From positions 1-39,374 of the IMG/VR virus record IMGVR_UViG_3300029009_000036: 39,374 nucleotides of DNA; one strand, given 5' to 3'. Origin of the DNA: a virus (lineage: Duplodnaviria > Heunggongvirae > Uroviricota > Caudoviricetes). Below the pieces are notes generated by a model, which saw only the letters and a program-made list of their open reading frames with translations, had not been told where the DNA came from and searched no databases. This document shows positions 2,057 through 39,143 of the stretch, piece by piece. Position 1 is the stretch's first letter. Each line of letters begins with the position of its first letter. Both the position numbers and the translations under genes were made by a program.

Positions 2057-2752
2057 ATGAAAAAGGAAATACTCAAGGCTCTTTGCCCTACATGCGGTGG
2101 GTTACGTAACTGCACTGTGCATGGGAAGCTAACCACTAGCTGGGAGGATTCCCAATATCCAGTTTATGGGTACCATTACCATCACCTACTCCAATGCAAT
2201 GGCTGTGATACTGTCTTCTATCACCACAACGAACACTTCAGTGAGCATACTACCCACGAATATCGTGATGGTGAATTTGTAGAAACGCCTATAGATATGA
2301 TCACTACCTATCCTGCCGCTGAAACATTTCAAGCTCCGATATGGTTATCCAAGCTTGAATCAGTTGATCGTCAGCTCTTTCAAATATTTAATGAAATGTA
2401 TTCTTCATATACTTCTGACCATTTCATTCTTTCGTCCATCGGTTTACGGACGATTTTTGATCGAACTGCTGAACTGTTACAAATTCACCCCGGTTTGCCG
2501 CTTGGTGAAAAAGTTGAAAAATTAAAACAAGATGGAGTCATAGGCGACACTGAGGCATGCGTTATATCTTCAGTAATTGATGCAGGAAACGCCGCCGCAC
2601 ATCGCAGTTGGAGCCCGAATAAAAGTGAGTTCGAACAAATGCTAGAAGCTATAGAAAGTTTTGTCCAAAGAACTATCTTGGGCAAAAAATCACTTGAACA
2701 TATAACCAAACAACTCCCACCTCGGGTTACAAGACCTAAAAATAGTGCATAA
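2057..2752 (+). CDS. Hypothetical cargo protein: N-terminal Cys4 zinc ribbon plus C-terminal helical domain with GNAAAH motif (DUF4145/HEPN-like, unverified)
   Basis: 231 aa; CPTCGG...CNGC pair of CxxC motifs; C-terminal ...VIDAGNAAAHRSW... resembles the R/N..AH signature I associate with DUF4145/HEPN-type domains; lower GC than flanking phage genes. Confidence 0.6.
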   Translation: MKKEILKALCPTCGGLRNCTVHGKLTTSWEDSQYPVYGYHYHHLLQCNGCDTVFYHHNEHFSEHTTHEYRDGEFVETPIDMITTYPAAETFQAPIWLSKLESVDRQLFQIFNEMYSSYTSDHFILSSIGLRTIFDRTAELLQIHPGLPLGEKVEKLKQDGVIGDTEACVISSVIDAGNAAAHRSWSPNKSEFEQMLEAIESFVQRTILGKKSLEHITKQLPPRVTRPKNSA

Positions 2753-2778: not shown

Positions 2779-3335
2779 CTATGGTTTACTTGCTACAGGG
2801 AATTTTTTATACACCGTTGAAATATCCAGATCATAAATCAGTGCGACTTGCTGCTGATATATTCCCGATTCAATCAACCTGCCAGCCTGCCCCCATTGTT
2901 CTACTGTCAGCTTTGGCTTTCGCCCACCGTTCCTCCCTTCTTGTCGTGCTGCGGCAAAGCCGCCCTAGTACGTTCGACAATAAACTCTCGCTCCATTTCA
3001 GCCAGGGCACCCATCACATGAAAGAAAAAGCGCCCCATTGGTGTGCTGGTATCAATAGCATCCGTCAGGCTGCGAAAATTAACGCCACGTTCGCGCAACT
3101 CTTCCACCAGCACGACAAGATGCCGCATACTGCGCCCCAGTCGGTCCAGTTTCCAGACCACCAGCGTGTCACCTGCCGATAATGTCCTGAGCAGCTTTTT
3201 CAGTCCTGGTCTGTCGGACTTTGTACCGCTTATCTTGTCTTCAAAAATCAGCTCACATCCTGCACAGTTCAACGCATTACGTTGTAGATCGGTGTTCTGG
3301 TCATTTGTTGATACGCGAACATAGCCAATAAGCAT
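2779..3335 (-). pseudogene. pin: Pin/Gin/Hin-family serine DNA invertase, frameshifted between catalytic and HTH domains
   Basis: ATG at 3335 with AGGAGG RBS; MLIGYVRVSTNDQNTDLQRNAL...LVVWKLDRLGRSMRHL is a canonical invertase catalytic domain; frame breaks near 2962-2968 (...VERTRAALPQHDKKGG...stop at 2907) while a shifted frame continues GGFAAARQEGRNGGKRPKLTVEQWGQAGRLIESGIYQQQVALIYDLDISTVYKKFPVASKP (HTH domain) to 2779. Confidence 0.75.
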
Positions 3336-3390
3336 GATAGCTCCTCCTGACAAAAACAGGAACGATGCCATTTGCGCGCTATTTCTGCAT

Positions 3391-3775: not shown

Positions 3776-4216
3776 ATGAATTATATATATTCCGCGACTA
3801 CAAACTCTTTCTATCCGTTAGAGATGAAAGAGGATTACACTCAAGCTGACTCATGGCCAGATGATGCTGTTGAAGTTGACGAGCAGGTGTATATTGAGTT
3901 TTCCGGATTACCGCCGAAAGGAAAAATCCGTATCGCTGGAGAAAATGGTTTTCCTGCATGGTCTGAAATTCCACCACCAACACATGAGGAACAGATTGCT
4001 GCAGCCGAACTGGAAAAGCAGCAATTGATTAATCAGGCCAACGATTATATGAACAGTAAACAATGGCCTGGTAAAGCGGCTATTGGTCGTCTGAAAGGTG
4101 AGGAACTGGCGCAATATAATTTGTGGCTGGATTATCTGGACGCACTGGAACTGGTTGATTCCTCCAGTGCTCCAGATATTGAATGGCCTACGCCTCCGGC
4201 AGTTCAGGCCAGATGA
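3776..4216 (+). CDS. Tail fibre assembly protein (alternative copy, Tfa family)
   Basis: 146 aa; C-terminus ...LWLDYLDALELVDSSSAPDIEWPTPP shares the conserved Tfa C-terminal motif with the convergent 4188-4781 gene. Confidence 0.8.
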   Translation: MNYIYSATTNSFYPLEMKEDYTQADSWPDDAVEVDEQVYIEFSGLPPKGKIRIAGENGFPAWSEIPPPTHEEQIAAAELEKQQLINQANDYMNSKQWPGKAAIGRLKGEELAQYNLWLDYLDALELVDSSSAPDIEWPTPPAVQAR

Positions 4217-35907: not shown

Positions 35908-36083
35908 TTTCATTACTGCAAATGCCCCTGCGGGGGCGTTTACGGAAGCGATAATTTTAACTATTGCCGCCCCTATAAAGAACCATTAAACGATAACGTG
36001 ACGTAGCTATTGATAGTAAATGAAGCACTTGCAAAATAATTGCATTGCGTATATATACGCACATGTGTTGTATTACAGCGATA

Positions 36084-36878
36084 ATGGTAAAGCAAATGAT
36101 TAACTCTGAAGCAATTGAGCAACTAATGTGGTTATGGTCCTTATTTGACATTAAATTCTTATCTATTTTTGCCGCAGGCTTCACTATATATTTTGGCGTA
36201 CAAAAAATATCAAAAAAGGTGACAGTATCGTATTCAGCAAATGTAAGTAAAATATATGACATGCATATATCAACCATAATCCTGACTAATAAAAGAGATA
36301 ATGCAATTGCTATATCTTCAATCAATATGGAGGTTGAAGGGAAAGGGATACTACAAGTTATTAAATTTGACTCCCCTCTTCTTCTAAAGAACTATGATTC
36401 TTTAAAAGTTGAACTACCAAAATTTAGCAGCCTTTATAATAATGATGGCATAGTTAAGTTAGATATTTCTGATAAGTTTCATTTTTATATAATCACGACA
36501 TCTGGAGATGAAATCAAATGTATTTCTGAAAATAAACACGTGGCACCAAATATGAAAAACAAAATAATTCCAGACATAATAAAATTTAATGGCATTGTCT
36601 TAACAAACAGAATGTCTTATATTTTTTTCTATGCAAATGACAACGGAGAGAAATACTGCATAATAGATGCTTCATTGTCCATAAATGGCGACAACCCATT
36701 TCATTTTCATGTTCTTAAAGAAGATAAATTAAGAGATTTTTCTAGCATCCTTATTGGTTACGGATATCACCAACGGTTTAAAAGTTATGCATTATTTAAA
36801 ATAGACAACCATCTTGCTCCTTCTTTGGTTTTAAATAAATCAATGATAGAAAATAATATTATTGAAATGAATAAGTAA
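36084..36878 (+). CDS. AT-rich cargo gene: membrane-anchored protein of unknown function
   Basis: Start uncertain (ATG 36063, 36084 or 36096; track start 36045 is TTG); N-terminal TM helix LMWLWSLFDIKFLSIFAAGFTIYFGV then ~230-aa Asn/Lys/Ile-rich soluble domain; candidate promoter TTGCAA-N17-TATATA just upstream (hexamer positions approximate). Confidence 0.6.
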   Translation: MVKQMINSEAIEQLMWLWSLFDIKFLSIFAAGFTIYFGVQKISKKVTVSYSANVSKIYDMHISTIILTNKRDNAIAISSINMEVEGKGILQVIKFDSPLLLKNYDSLKVELPKFSSLYNNDGIVKLDISDKFHFYIITTSGDEIKCISENKHVAPNMKNKIIPDIIKFNGIVLTNRMSYIFFYANDNGEKYCIIDASLSINGDNPFHFHVLKEDKLRDFSSILIGYGYHQRFKSYALFKIDNHLAPSLVLNKSMIENNIIEMNK

Positions 36879-36914: not shown

Positions 36915-37187
36915 ATGAATACCTTGTTTTTACTGATGGCTGAATTCAATACCCTAAACATTGAACTCTCAGCAGTTAGTCAAAAATACTTTGGTATGAG
37001 TCCAGCCACGGCAGAAGCAAAAGCAAACGCTTGTAAGTTGCCCGTTCCAACATATCGCATCGGCACATCACAAAAAGCAAAACGTTGCATCAATATTCAG
37101 GATCTTGCGGAATACATAGACAAAAGGCGAGAAGAAGGGCGTGCTGAGTGGGAAAGGGTCAGAACCCATAAACAAAGGCTCATTTAA
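36915..37187 (+). CDS. Excisionase-like winged-helix DNA-binding protein (PrtN/AlpA-like, unverified)
   Basis: 90 aa, ATG at 36915 with GGAGAAA RBS; MNTLFLLMAEF... recalls PrtN-family proteins; attR-proximal position opposite int mirrors torI in KplE1. Confidence 0.55.
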   Translation: MNTLFLLMAEFNTLNIELSAVSQKYFGMSPATAEAKANACKLPVPTYRIGTSQKAKRCINIQDLAEYIDKRREEGRAEWERVRTHKQRLI

Positions 37188-37194
37188 ATAGAAT

Positions 37195-37228
37195 ATGAAT
37201 AAACCCATCCAAAGGTGGGTTTATTCAT
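37195..37228. terminator. Perfect 13-bp hairpin between convergent genes
   Basis: atgaataaaccca / tgggtttattcat with 8-nt loop tccaaagg; U-rich tract on minus strand; overlaps stop of the 37221-37682 gene. Confidence 0.65.
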
Positions 37229-37682
37229 AATGTTGAAGAGCAGCGAGTATCAGTTTTTTATGCCGTTTAACCATGATTTTAGATATCTCAACTGCACATC
37301 GAACTTGTCTCATACAATGATCTGTAATGCGACCTTTTAGCACGTCGCCATATTGGATGGCTATTTTCTCTTTAATAATTTCAAGATCGAAAGCAGCATG
37401 AGCCTCAATGCAATTAACAAATGAGTCCCATTTAAGAAAATCATGGTCCTCTCTATTAATTTCGACCTGACAAGCCATAAGATCATTGTTTCTCTTAATA
37501 AATTCATTTATATCTGAATTTATTAGAAGAACTAAAAGAGGTTCACAGCAAACAACCACCATATATTTTACTTTAGGTGGGGTCGTAAAATCACAATGAA
37601 GATACAATACATCACCGGGTGATATACCTCTTTCACGACTAAAATTAGCCTTAAAATCAGGAGGGAAACAATCACCCAGCAT
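37221..37682 (-). CDS. Uncharacterised partner protein of Panacea-domain gene (candidate toxin/effector)
   Basis: 153 aa from ATG 37682 (TTG 37691 alternative); starts 6 nt after Panacea-gene stop; AT-rich; no domain recognised. Confidence 0.6.
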   Translation of the reverse strand: MLGDCFPPDFKANFSRERGISPGDVLYLHCDFTTPPKVKYMVVVCCEPLLVLLINSDINEFIKRNNDLMACQVEINREDHDFLKWDSFVNCIEAHAAFDLEIIKEKIAIQYGDVLKGRITDHCMRQVRCAVEISKIMVKRHKKLILAALQHYE

Positions 37683-37687
37683 AAGTA

Positions 37688-38269
37688 TCAATATCCGTTC
37701 TTCAGATAATCCAGTATTAATTTGCTATTTTTTAGCTGTGCAACTATCGATTCCAAAGACATCTCACCATTGTGATCTGCCTGTTCCCATGCCGCGTCAT
37801 GGCTCATGGTTCTGATAGCTTCAAAGGACATGTTTCCAAGCATCGCGATAGACTTATCAATACACTCTAAATCTGAGTCACTAAAAAAGTCTTCATCAGC
37901 TTCACGGCTCGGCACAATCATCATACCTGATACAGAAAATGCTTTTCGCACAGAATCGACATCACAACCATTAGGAATGTAACGTCCATCTCCACGAGCA
38001 ATTTTTATAATATCGTATGTGTTGCTTGCTACAGGCCCATCCTTCATAGCGTTATAGTGATCGCCCGTTATGAGGCGTCCAAAACTTTCAAGGTGAAACC
38101 TGTCAGCATAATAAAGAATTTTTCCGACATGATAGATATCTGGGATCGGTGCTTTAGAGGCGACGTACAGAATGGCCTCTAAAGCCTTTTCTGAATCAAA
38201 CCTTACATTTAGCATCAATACACCCTTCATCCAAACAACATCGTCAAGCTCTGGCAAATGCAACCGCAT
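37688..38269 (-). CDS. Panacea-domain (DUF4065, SocA-like) protein, candidate antitoxin
   Basis: 193 aa, ATG at 38269 with AGGAGG RBS; core ...KILYYADRFHLESFGRLITGDHYNAMKDGPVASNTYDIIK... fits the K.LYYA....G.P......A...GPV...Y pattern I associate with DUF4065. Confidence 0.65.
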   Translation of the reverse strand: MRLHLPELDDVVWMKGVLMLNVRFDSEKALEAILYVASKAPIPDIYHVGKILYYADRFHLESFGRLITGDHYNAMKDGPVASNTYDIIKIARGDGRYIPNGCDVDSVRKAFSVSGMMIVPSREADEDFFSDSDLECIDKSIAMLGNMSFEAIRTMSHDAAWEQADHNGEMSLESIVAQLKNSKLILDYLKNGY

Positions 38270-38390
38270 CCGCCTCCTGCAATCTTAAAGTCTTCACCTA
38301 CGCTAGGTCAATTGAAGTGATGAGCAAATGATGCTTTCTAAGAATAACAGGTTCCCAATAGGCTCCCACAAAGTGTATAACTACTTGTTT

Positions 38391-38472
38391 TTCAAAAACG
38401 GTACATCCTATCGAGCATCGGGGCAATCGAGAAACGGTAAGCGGGATAAACAGTGTGTGATTCTGCTGGCAT
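38391..38472 (-). pseudogene. dusA: Displaced original 5' end of dusA (remnant at attR)
   Basis: Minus-strand ATG 38472: [21 protein letters not shown] then diverges to a stop; ...RFSIAPMLD matches the restored dusA copy at the left end. Confidence 0.6.
38411..38427. other. attR core candidate
   Basis: tcgagcatcggggcaat, direct repeat of 109-125. Confidence 0.5.
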
Positions 38473-38627
38473 GGCGACTTTTTAAGCATCTGGTAAATTG
38501 GGGGCGCTACTATAGCATAACGAATATGCGATCAGGCAATGTGACAGCCATGACACCCTGTTCTCGGCGTTTAAGTGAGAACTATGATAAAGTAAGGACA
38601 TTCTTAACCCCACTGTCGAGGTGCCCA

Positions 38628-39143
38628 ATGGAAAAGACCACAACGCAGGAGTTATTAGCGCAGGCTGAAAAAATCTGCGCACAGCGTAATGTGCGCCTGA
38701 CCCCACAGCGCCTCGAAGTGTTGCGCCTGATGAGTCTGCAGGATGGCGCTATCAGCGCTTATGATCTGCTTGATTTGCTGCGCGAAGCTGAACCGCAAGC
38801 CAAGCCGCCAACGGTTTATCGCGCGCTGGAGTTTCTGCTTGAACAAGGTTTTGTGCATAAGGTGGAATCCACCAACAGTTATGTGCTCTGTCATCTGTTC
38901 GATCAGCCCACCCATACTTCAGCCATGTTTATTTGCGATCGCTGCGGCGCGGTGAAAGAAGAATGTGCTGAAGGCGTGGAAGACATCATGCATACGCTGG
39001 CGGCAAAAATGGGTTTTGCCCTGCGGCATAATGTTATTGAAGCACATGGATTATGTTCAGCATGTGTAGAAGTAGAAGCGTGTCGTCATCCTGAACAGTG
39101 CCATCATGACCACTCTATTCAGGTGAAAAAGAAACCTCGCTAA
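38628..39143 (+). CDS. zur: Zinc uptake regulator Zur (Fur family)
   Basis: 171 aa from ATG 38628: MEKTTTQELLAQAEKICAQRNVRLTPQRLEVLRLMSLQDGAISAYDLLDLLREAEPQAKPPTVYRALEFL...; ORF-track extension upstream has no support. Confidence 0.9.
   Translation: MEKTTTQELLAQAEKICAQRNVRLTPQRLEVLRLMSLQDGAISAYDLLDLLREAEPQAKPPTVYRALEFLLEQGFVHKVESTNSYVLCHLFDQPTHTSAMFICDRCGAVKEECAEGVEDIMHTLAAKMGFALRHNVIEAHGLCSACVEVEACRHPEQCHHDHSIQVKKKPR

Follow-up and report, generated by a model that had tools for sequence, protein, structure and literature searches.

A predicted PanAT toxin-antitoxin-type cassette of cluster T5 at the attR end of a dusA-integrated Escherichia coli prophage

What is encoded by two small, AT-rich genes that lie together at the right attachment junction (attR) of an Escherichia coli prophage? 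The window analyzed here is the whole stretch of IMG/VR virus record IMGVR_UViG_3300029009_000036, 39,374 nucleotides (nt) in length, and the genes in question, referred to as panA (37688-38269) and panT (37221-37682), are both on the minus strand with panA first. A sequence-only reading of this DNA had seen a Panacea/DUF4065 core in the first gene and nothing recognizable in the second, and had suggested that the two may form an undescribed toxin-antitoxin or anti-phage module. The results presented below make it probable that panA-panT is a PanAT toxin-antitoxin-type cassette of cluster T5 and of type II, in which PanA would block a ribonuclease (RNase) of the MazF fold. As judged by sequence comparison, the cassette would be an added member of a family of gene pairs that was predicted as early as 2022, and not an undescribed system.

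The identity of the first gene product can be stated directly. As annotated from ATG 38269, PanA is a protein of 193 amino acids (aa), and a profile hidden Markov model search matches its residues 50-161 to PF13274 (SocA_Panacea) with an E-value of 6.8e-20 and 72.5 bits against a cut-off of 25.7, which bears out the Panacea/DUF4065 call. A match to phrog_1281 is also observed (E 1.5e-20). The protein is a Panacea-domain protein of the stand-alone kind, with no extra N-terminal domain, and it is not a SocA ortholog, as the NCBIfam SocA equivalog NF047745 gives 17.1 bits against a cut-off of 190. In 46 of 5426 complete E. coli genomes, RefSeq calls the same two coding sequences (CDSs) and names them WP_001547985.1, 'Panacea domain-containing protein', and WP_001547986.1, 'hypothetical protein'; the presence of two tightly linked minus-strand open reading frames (ORFs) is thus confirmed.

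What, then, is the partner? Sequence searches with PanT (153 aa from ATG 37682), run with the single sequence and for the PDB also with a family profile, returned nothing usable from Pfam, PADLOC, NCBIfam or the PDB, and weak matches to RRM_2, phrog_29007, augmin and bungarotoxin were dismissed as chance. A published survey of DUF4065/Panacea gene neighborhoods nevertheless contains a relative. Kurata et al. (2022, PNAS; PMC8832971) described 88 predicted toxin clusters, and their Dataset S1 lists, for Photorhabdus heterorhabditis, the PanA protein WP_054475899.1, which has no N-terminal domain, together with the T5 toxin WP_054475897.1, entered there as untested, in antitoxin-first order with a 3-nt gap. 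PanT shares 52% identity with WP_054475897.1 along its entire length (E 4e-64), which places it in cluster T5 by homology and removes the earlier suggestion that the module is undescribed. In the same source, HHpred comparison of a T5 representative gives EndoA/MazF at 99.5% and CcdB at 98.5%, and the phyla listed for T5 are Proteobacteria, Bacteroidetes, Cyanobacteria and others. The family is large: a word-indexed search found relatives in 41 clusters from Enterobacterales and Idiomarina, and an exhaustive profile search of clusters built at 50% identity retrieved 1247 representatives at E <= 1e-3, of which 621 also reach E <= 1e-10. The 150 relatives listed are for the most part ~135-165 aa in length, and the shorter ones are mainly fragments.

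An AlphaFold2 model of PanT built from a 28-sequence alignment is confident (predicted local distance difference test, pLDDT, 89.9; predicted template modeling score, pTM, 0.83) and shows the SH3-like β-barrel of the MazF type. Foldseek comparison of the model with the PDB ranks MazF/PemK proteins first (MazF-mt3 at E 8e-4 and MazF-mt1 at E 4.6e-3), and comparison with viral models (BFVD) likewise ranks MazF/PemK first, with PemK-like phage proteins. Therefore, the partner, which gave no match in Pfam or PDB sequence searches, acquires a confident MazF/PemK/Kid fold by structure prediction. Relative to the canonical MazF of ~110 aa, the model carries an N-terminal helix (of lower confidence), a helical insert at residues 100-114 and an additional C-terminal helix. 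On the basis of this model, WP_001547986.1 can be described as a MazF-fold putative PanT toxin.

Would such a protein retain an active site? The catalytic pair of MazF consists of R25 and T48. In 52 PanT family members, whose identity to the window protein is 27-53%, no substitution occurs at G23, K39 or S87, and F32, K37, N55, S56, L68, F82, L83 and C91 are near-invariant, while H80 and H95 are invariant in the close PanT clade and not conserved more widely. A collinear but weak hhalign alignment of PanT onto Bacillus subtilis MazF places G23 on G6, K39 on R25, N55 on T48 (with S56 adjacent) and S87 on S73. In the candidate site, K39 would accordingly stand in place of MazF Arg25, and N55/S56 in place of Thr48. 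Substitutions of this type have precedent in Mycobacterium tuberculosis, where active MazF4 has Lys for Arg and MazF7 has Ser for Thr, and where mutating these replacements impairs activity (PMC7354611). From the model and these positions we infer that PanT may cleave RNA through a Lys/Ser(Asn) site and, as an active endoribonuclease, arrest translation.

The association of the two genes is observed well beyond this prophage. Loci were pooled from annotated genomes, public assemblies and IMG/VR, and a PanA homolog lies directly upstream of the partner on the same strand in all 33 of the 33 loci that have at least 500 nt of upstream DNA, with the two genes overlapping or no more than a few tens of nt apart. 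Nine further loci without PanA are uninformative, because each begins within ~60 nt of the start of the partner match (at position 1 in seven of them). Hosts include a Serratia phage, Rahnella, Idiomarina and a metagenomic island, and the neighbors vary: integrases (loci L031 and L036), a position between tail genes and the tape-measure gene (L032 and L033), a position between Q and lysis genes (Serratia phage OS31, L039) and a position beside umuDC-like genes (L041 and L042). In Rahnella aceris CP002505 (L007, 4771-5688), the pair occupies a P2-like prophage between the Phage_GPA replication gene and the portal gene and is directly followed by a 305-aa AbiJ_NTD4-domain protein, such that this locus is a cluster of candidate defense genes in a known P2 cargo hotspot. 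The varied flanks together with the fixed pairing indicate that the cassette moves as a two-gene unit among temperate-phage cargo sites. Moreover, both genes are under purifying selection, with ratios of nonsynonymous to synonymous substitution rates (dN/dS) against a 75-85% identical homolog of 0.03 for PanA and 0.12 for PanT.

The pair also has the layout expected of a toxin-antitoxin module, with a candidate promoter and a terminator hairpin of its own. The panA TGA (37690-37688) and the panT ATG (37682) are separated by 5 nt, one fewer than first counted. AGGAGG (38278-38273) is located 3 nt ahead of ATG 38269, and only a weak GGA is found upstream of the panT start; because this GGA is weak, translational coupling is likelier for panT than a ribosome-binding site of its own. 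A TTG at 37691 that overlaps the panA stop codon provides an alternative panT start. Between the attR junction and panA, a consensus scan identifies a candidate sigma-70 promoter on the minus strand (38282-38311) composed of TTGACC (38311-38306), an 18-nt spacer and TAAGAT (38287-38282), with 9 of 12 positions matching. The region contains 4 promoter-like sites against 5.6 ± 2.7 in shuffles, and since this is no excess, the promoter postulated at the outset remains a candidate only. At the other end, an intrinsic-terminator-like hairpin on the minus strand (37194-37229) has perfect 14-bp arms (37194-37207 and 37216-37229), an 8-nt loop and a T-rich tail, TTCTATTT; the hairpin initially read as 13 bp is thus real and slightly longer. 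Its upstream arm contains the last panT codons and the stop, and it lies 7 nt past the stop of a convergent excisionase gene. Transcriptional autoregulation through an operator was considered and rejected, as there is no inverted repeat in the promoter region and no DNA-binding domain in PanA recognizable by Pfam. Within the genes themselves, a perfect 11-bp inverted repeat, GCTTTAGAGGC/GCCTCTAAAGC, with 13 nt between its arms is found in panA (38151-38185), and a 17-nt inverted pair, 88% complementary and 8 nt apart, is found in panT (37490-37531); both may be due to chance.

Where does PanA begin? The extent 37688-38269 agrees with RefSeq, but four of five aligned PanA homologs (from Serratia phage OS31, two Rahnella loci and a metagenomic island) have their first residue at the position of M19 of the window protein, MLNVRFDSEKALEAILYVA, or one residue away at most, such that a start at 38269 adds 18 residues that these four do not have. 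The fifth, from Idiomarina, has a longer called N-terminus that shows no similarity in this part. The corresponding ATG (38215-38213) has AAGGG 7 nt upstream, which is better spaced than the motif before the annotated start, and the candidate promoter, if real, would start the transcript at approximately the AGGAGG that precedes ATG 38269. The homolog starts, the AAGGG and this predicted transcript start together suggest that the true start of PanA is probably ATG 38215, giving a protein of 175 aa, and that the RefSeq start is probably wrong.

How does the cassette relate to published systems? A Panacea domain, an adjacent partner within 100 nt (here 5 nt away on the same strand) and a conserved pairing (here kept in all 33 loci) are among the features by which Kurata et al. 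recognize PanAT, and these are found here; the combination of a CcdB-type toxin with a CcdA antitoxin that would denote CcdAB is not found in the pair. The closest published counterpart, the T5 pair of P. heterorhabditis, has a homologous toxin, antitoxin-first order, a gap of a few nt, a PanA without an N-terminal domain and a predicted MazF fold in common with the window pair, which differs in having an E. coli host and in lying by attR in a prophage integrated at dusA. For T5 as a cluster there is a bioinformatic prediction and a single assay, which was inconclusive. Better characterized are the MazF-like PanTs of T6 (Pseudomonas moraviensis) and T25 (Bifidobacterium ruminantium), which inhibit translation and are neutralized by PanA, with the complex shown for T6 (PMC8832971). 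These pairs likewise combine a Panacea antitoxin with a toxin of predicted EndoA/PemK/MazF fold, but they belong to other toxin clusters, and T25 matches the CDD PemK family whereas the window PanT has no Pfam match. All five PanAT pairs tested for binding in the same study formed stable complexes, as is typical of type II systems, and the later NetFlax study found that a stand-alone Panacea domain neutralizes directly, proposed a sensor role for it and linked toxin-antitoxin systems to defense (PMC10440598). Neither WP_001547985.1 nor WP_001547986.1 was found in the accessible parts of Dataset S1 of PMC8832971 or of the NetFlax supplements, and a literature search returned no paper mentioning WP_001547985 or WP_001547986.

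Comparison with the classical systems follows the same pattern of partial likeness. In common with MazEF, PemIK and Kis-Kid, the antitoxin gene comes first, and on the weak alignment a basic residue at the start of β2 and Ser/Asn at the end of β3 of PanT would fall at the catalytic positions. In contrast, the antitoxin is of the Panacea type instead of the MazE, PemI or Kis type, there is no PF02452 match, and PanT, ~40 aa longer, has helices added at the N-terminus, at the C-terminus and as an insert, and a very short β1-β2 loop. The type VI system SocAB of Caulobacter also has an antitoxin with a Panacea/DUF4065 domain; however, PanA is not a SocA ortholog, the toxins are unrelated, and the mechanism expected here would be direct binding and not delivery to ClpXP.

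Taken as a PanAT cassette, the locus would function as follows. The two genes would be co-transcribed from the promoter beside attR, their translation would probably be coupled given the 5-nt gap, and transcription would stop at the 14-bp hairpin. PanT would most likely be a ribosome-independent endoribonuclease that halts translation, and PanA would bind PanT directly and hold it inactive, as in type II systems; we infer this mode of neutralization because of the published and validated PanAT pairs. The cassette would then be mobile temperate-phage cargo that plausibly stabilizes the prophage or, when another phage superinfects, causes growth arrest.

Several observations weigh against this assignment. 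Neither PanT nor 10 distant relatives give a PF02452 (PemK_toxin) match at E <= 1, the family profile finds no MazF among PDB sequences, and neither protein has a match in PADLOC-DB v2 at E <= 1. Comparison of the PanT family with MazF by hhalign, for which the comparator was a three-sequence MazF alignment (B. subtilis, E. coli and Kid), gives E-values of 0.011-0.07 and a probability below 4%, which is not significant, and the mapping of catalytic residues depends on this weak alignment together with the fold match. In MazF, the β1-β2 loop gates both the RNA substrate and the antitoxin. The corresponding loop of PanT is very short, and the protein has extra helices at both its N- and C-termini. 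The promoter is a consensus match only. Finally, the only T5 pair that has been assayed, that of Chryseobacterium bovis (termed 'MazF'), has a toxic toxin, but its PanA was also toxic on over-expression and neutralization was not established (PMC8832971).

Could the cassette instead serve mainly against other phages? The alternative to which we give most weight, as a tentative possibility, is that it acts through abortive infection or superinfection exclusion, with the Panacea domain sensing an infection cue and releasing or activating the MazF-like RNase in order to protect lysogens. Members of the family sit where temperate phages classically carry cargo, namely at the attR end, in the GPA-portal hotspot of P2 with AbiJ_NTD4 alongside, next to integrases, in tail modules and in the Q-lysis region; the window pair brings a candidate promoter and a terminator of its own and is foreign in base composition; and the authors of the NetFlax study propose a Panacea sensor and link toxin-antitoxin systems to defense (PMC10440598). 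However, this genomic context is circumstantial, neither protein matches a PADLOC model, and literature searches gave no phage-protection data for T5 or the E. coli pair. A role in defense can coexist with a toxin-antitoxin mechanism. A somewhat more speculative version treats the T5 cassette as a phage-borne superinfection-defense switch and not as a conventional addiction module, in which the Panacea domain senses a cue and unleashes an atypical MazF-fold nuclease; the atypical features are the Lys/Ser active site, the truncated gating loop and the extra helices, and the target could differ from canonical MazF substrates.

The same features of PanT might suggest that no toxin is present. It is rather unlikely, in our assessment, that the MazF-fold protein is a non-toxic nucleic-acid-binding or regulatory protein that partners PanA in some phage function, even though 8 of the 25 PanT candidates tested showed no toxicity in E. 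coli, including an E. coli prophage-type T1 pair (PMC8832971), the family lacks a significant match in sequence to the catalytic MazF families and the β1-β2 loop is atypically short. One T5 member is toxic, the two-gene linkage is strict over distant hosts and changing neighbors, and the residues aligned with the MazF catalytic pair vary little or not at all among relatives that share no more than 27-53% identity with the window protein. Two further readings are less probable again. The name SocA_Panacea recalls that the domain was first characterized in SocA, and PanA could by extension be a proteolytic adaptor that delivers PanT to ClpXP, as in the type VI system; the SocA equivalog score of 17.1 bits against a cut-off of 190, a PanT unrelated to SocB and the stable complexes formed by the five PanAT pairs tested (PMC8832971) make this improbable. 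We regard as slightly more improbable still that PanT is a DNA-gyrase poison and not an RNase, a proposal that arises since CcdB has the same fold. CcdB contacts GyrA via its C-terminus, and the C-terminus is the least conserved part of the PanT family. Both Foldseek searches give only MazF/PemK among the significant matches, a ranking that makes CcdB-like poisoning less likely, and the validated MazF-like PanTs inhibit translation. The type II PanAT reading is therefore the one we favor.

Why does this assignment matter? The pair is an E. coli native-host example of T5, a still putative toxin cluster of wide distribution (over 1200 cluster representatives at 50% identity) whose single assayed member gave an ambiguous outcome in a heterologous host. 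Because of the E. coli origin, standard assays of toxicity, neutralization and phage challenge would run in the natural background, and such assays could settle whether a stand-alone Panacea domain directly neutralizes a MazF-fold toxin and whether lysogens are protected. For annotation, WP_001547986.1 could be relabeled as a MazF-fold putative PanT, and the panA start probably needs correction.

The genomic setting agrees with the attR-end location proposed from the sequence. The window is filled by an E. coli prophage of ~38 kb that is integrated at dusA. A tyrosine integrase gene (PF00589) is found at 301-1398, and dusA, now with a phage-supplied 5' end, lies on the minus strand and extends past the left edge of the window. 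At the opposite end, a displaced 5' remnant of host dusA on the minus strand (~38410-38472) marks the attR junction, as identified by its translation and by what RefSeq annotates at the matching place, a pseudo-CDS 'tRNA-dihydrouridine synthase, incomplete'; the host genes zur and yjbJ come right after it. A dedicated family of integrases inserts into the 5' end of dusA (PMC4482086). The panAT pair is ~140 bp inside the attR junction, and the excisionase gene convergent with it (36915-37187, plus strand) is of the PrtN type (PF11112, E 1.5e-22; phrog_1300 'excisionase', E 6.4e-39). This position is typical for phage cargo genes ('morons'), and the description of the pair as prophage cargo holds. 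So does the claim that it is AT-rich against a GC-rich prophage: the guanine-plus-cytosine (GC) content of the pair is 38.6% (PanA 41.6%; partner 35.1%, with a GC3 of 0.24) versus 53% for the prophage body. Of 5426 complete E. coli genomes, 45 carry a 1.18-kb segment with the pair at no less than 99% identity and one carries it at 95-99%, and the segment is chromosomal in every carrier.

The sequences around the two prophage ends show further features. Only ~150 bp of host flank separate the dusA remnant from zur in the window (38472-38628), whereas in E. coli CP061764 (L001, 7366-10230) this interval is taken up by a DUF2713 gene with a frameshift and by an IS5-family (ISKpn26-like) element; this difference indicates that the host flank beside attR is strain-variable. 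Two copies of the octamer AGGTTCCC lie a short way upstream of the integrase gene (245 and 257), a third in the panA-attR interval (38349) and a fourth elsewhere (13824), and the 11-mer ACAGGTTCCCA is common to both prophage ends (255-265 and 38347-38357). These may be arm-type binding sites of the integrase, in which case the attR arm would overlap the region upstream of the panAT promoter.

Other genes near the prophage ends may also be cargo. Directly upstream of the excisionase gene, a 277-aa ORF (36045-36878, plus strand) lies in the most AT-rich stretch of the window (29% GC) and matches phrog_14996, a family of unknown function, at E 1.7e-175, with no Pfam, PADLOC or NCBIfam match. The same ORF is found beside xis in IMG/VR contig L009. 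In E. coli CP061764, whose prophage end is otherwise near-identical, the excisionase gene is directly preceded by a 3'-5' exonuclease gene and the 277-aa ORF is not annotated; this ORF has the appearance of a second variable cargo gene. A 231-aa protein encoded at the attL end (2057-2752, plus strand) has a Cys-rich, zinc-ribbon-like N-terminal segment followed by DUF4145 (PF13643, E 8.8e-10), and its gene, possibly another cargo gene, sits between the integrase gene and the invertase and tail-fiber genes. The serine recombinase ORF at this place (2907-3371, minus strand) encodes only 154 aa with a resolvase/invertase N-terminal domain (PF00239, E 6.8e-49) and is possibly truncated, since the usual C-terminal DNA-binding part is missing. 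It adjoins tail-fiber and tail-fiber-assembly genes (Caudo_TAP, 3776-4216), and the locus looks like a Gin/Hin-type tail-fiber inversion switch.

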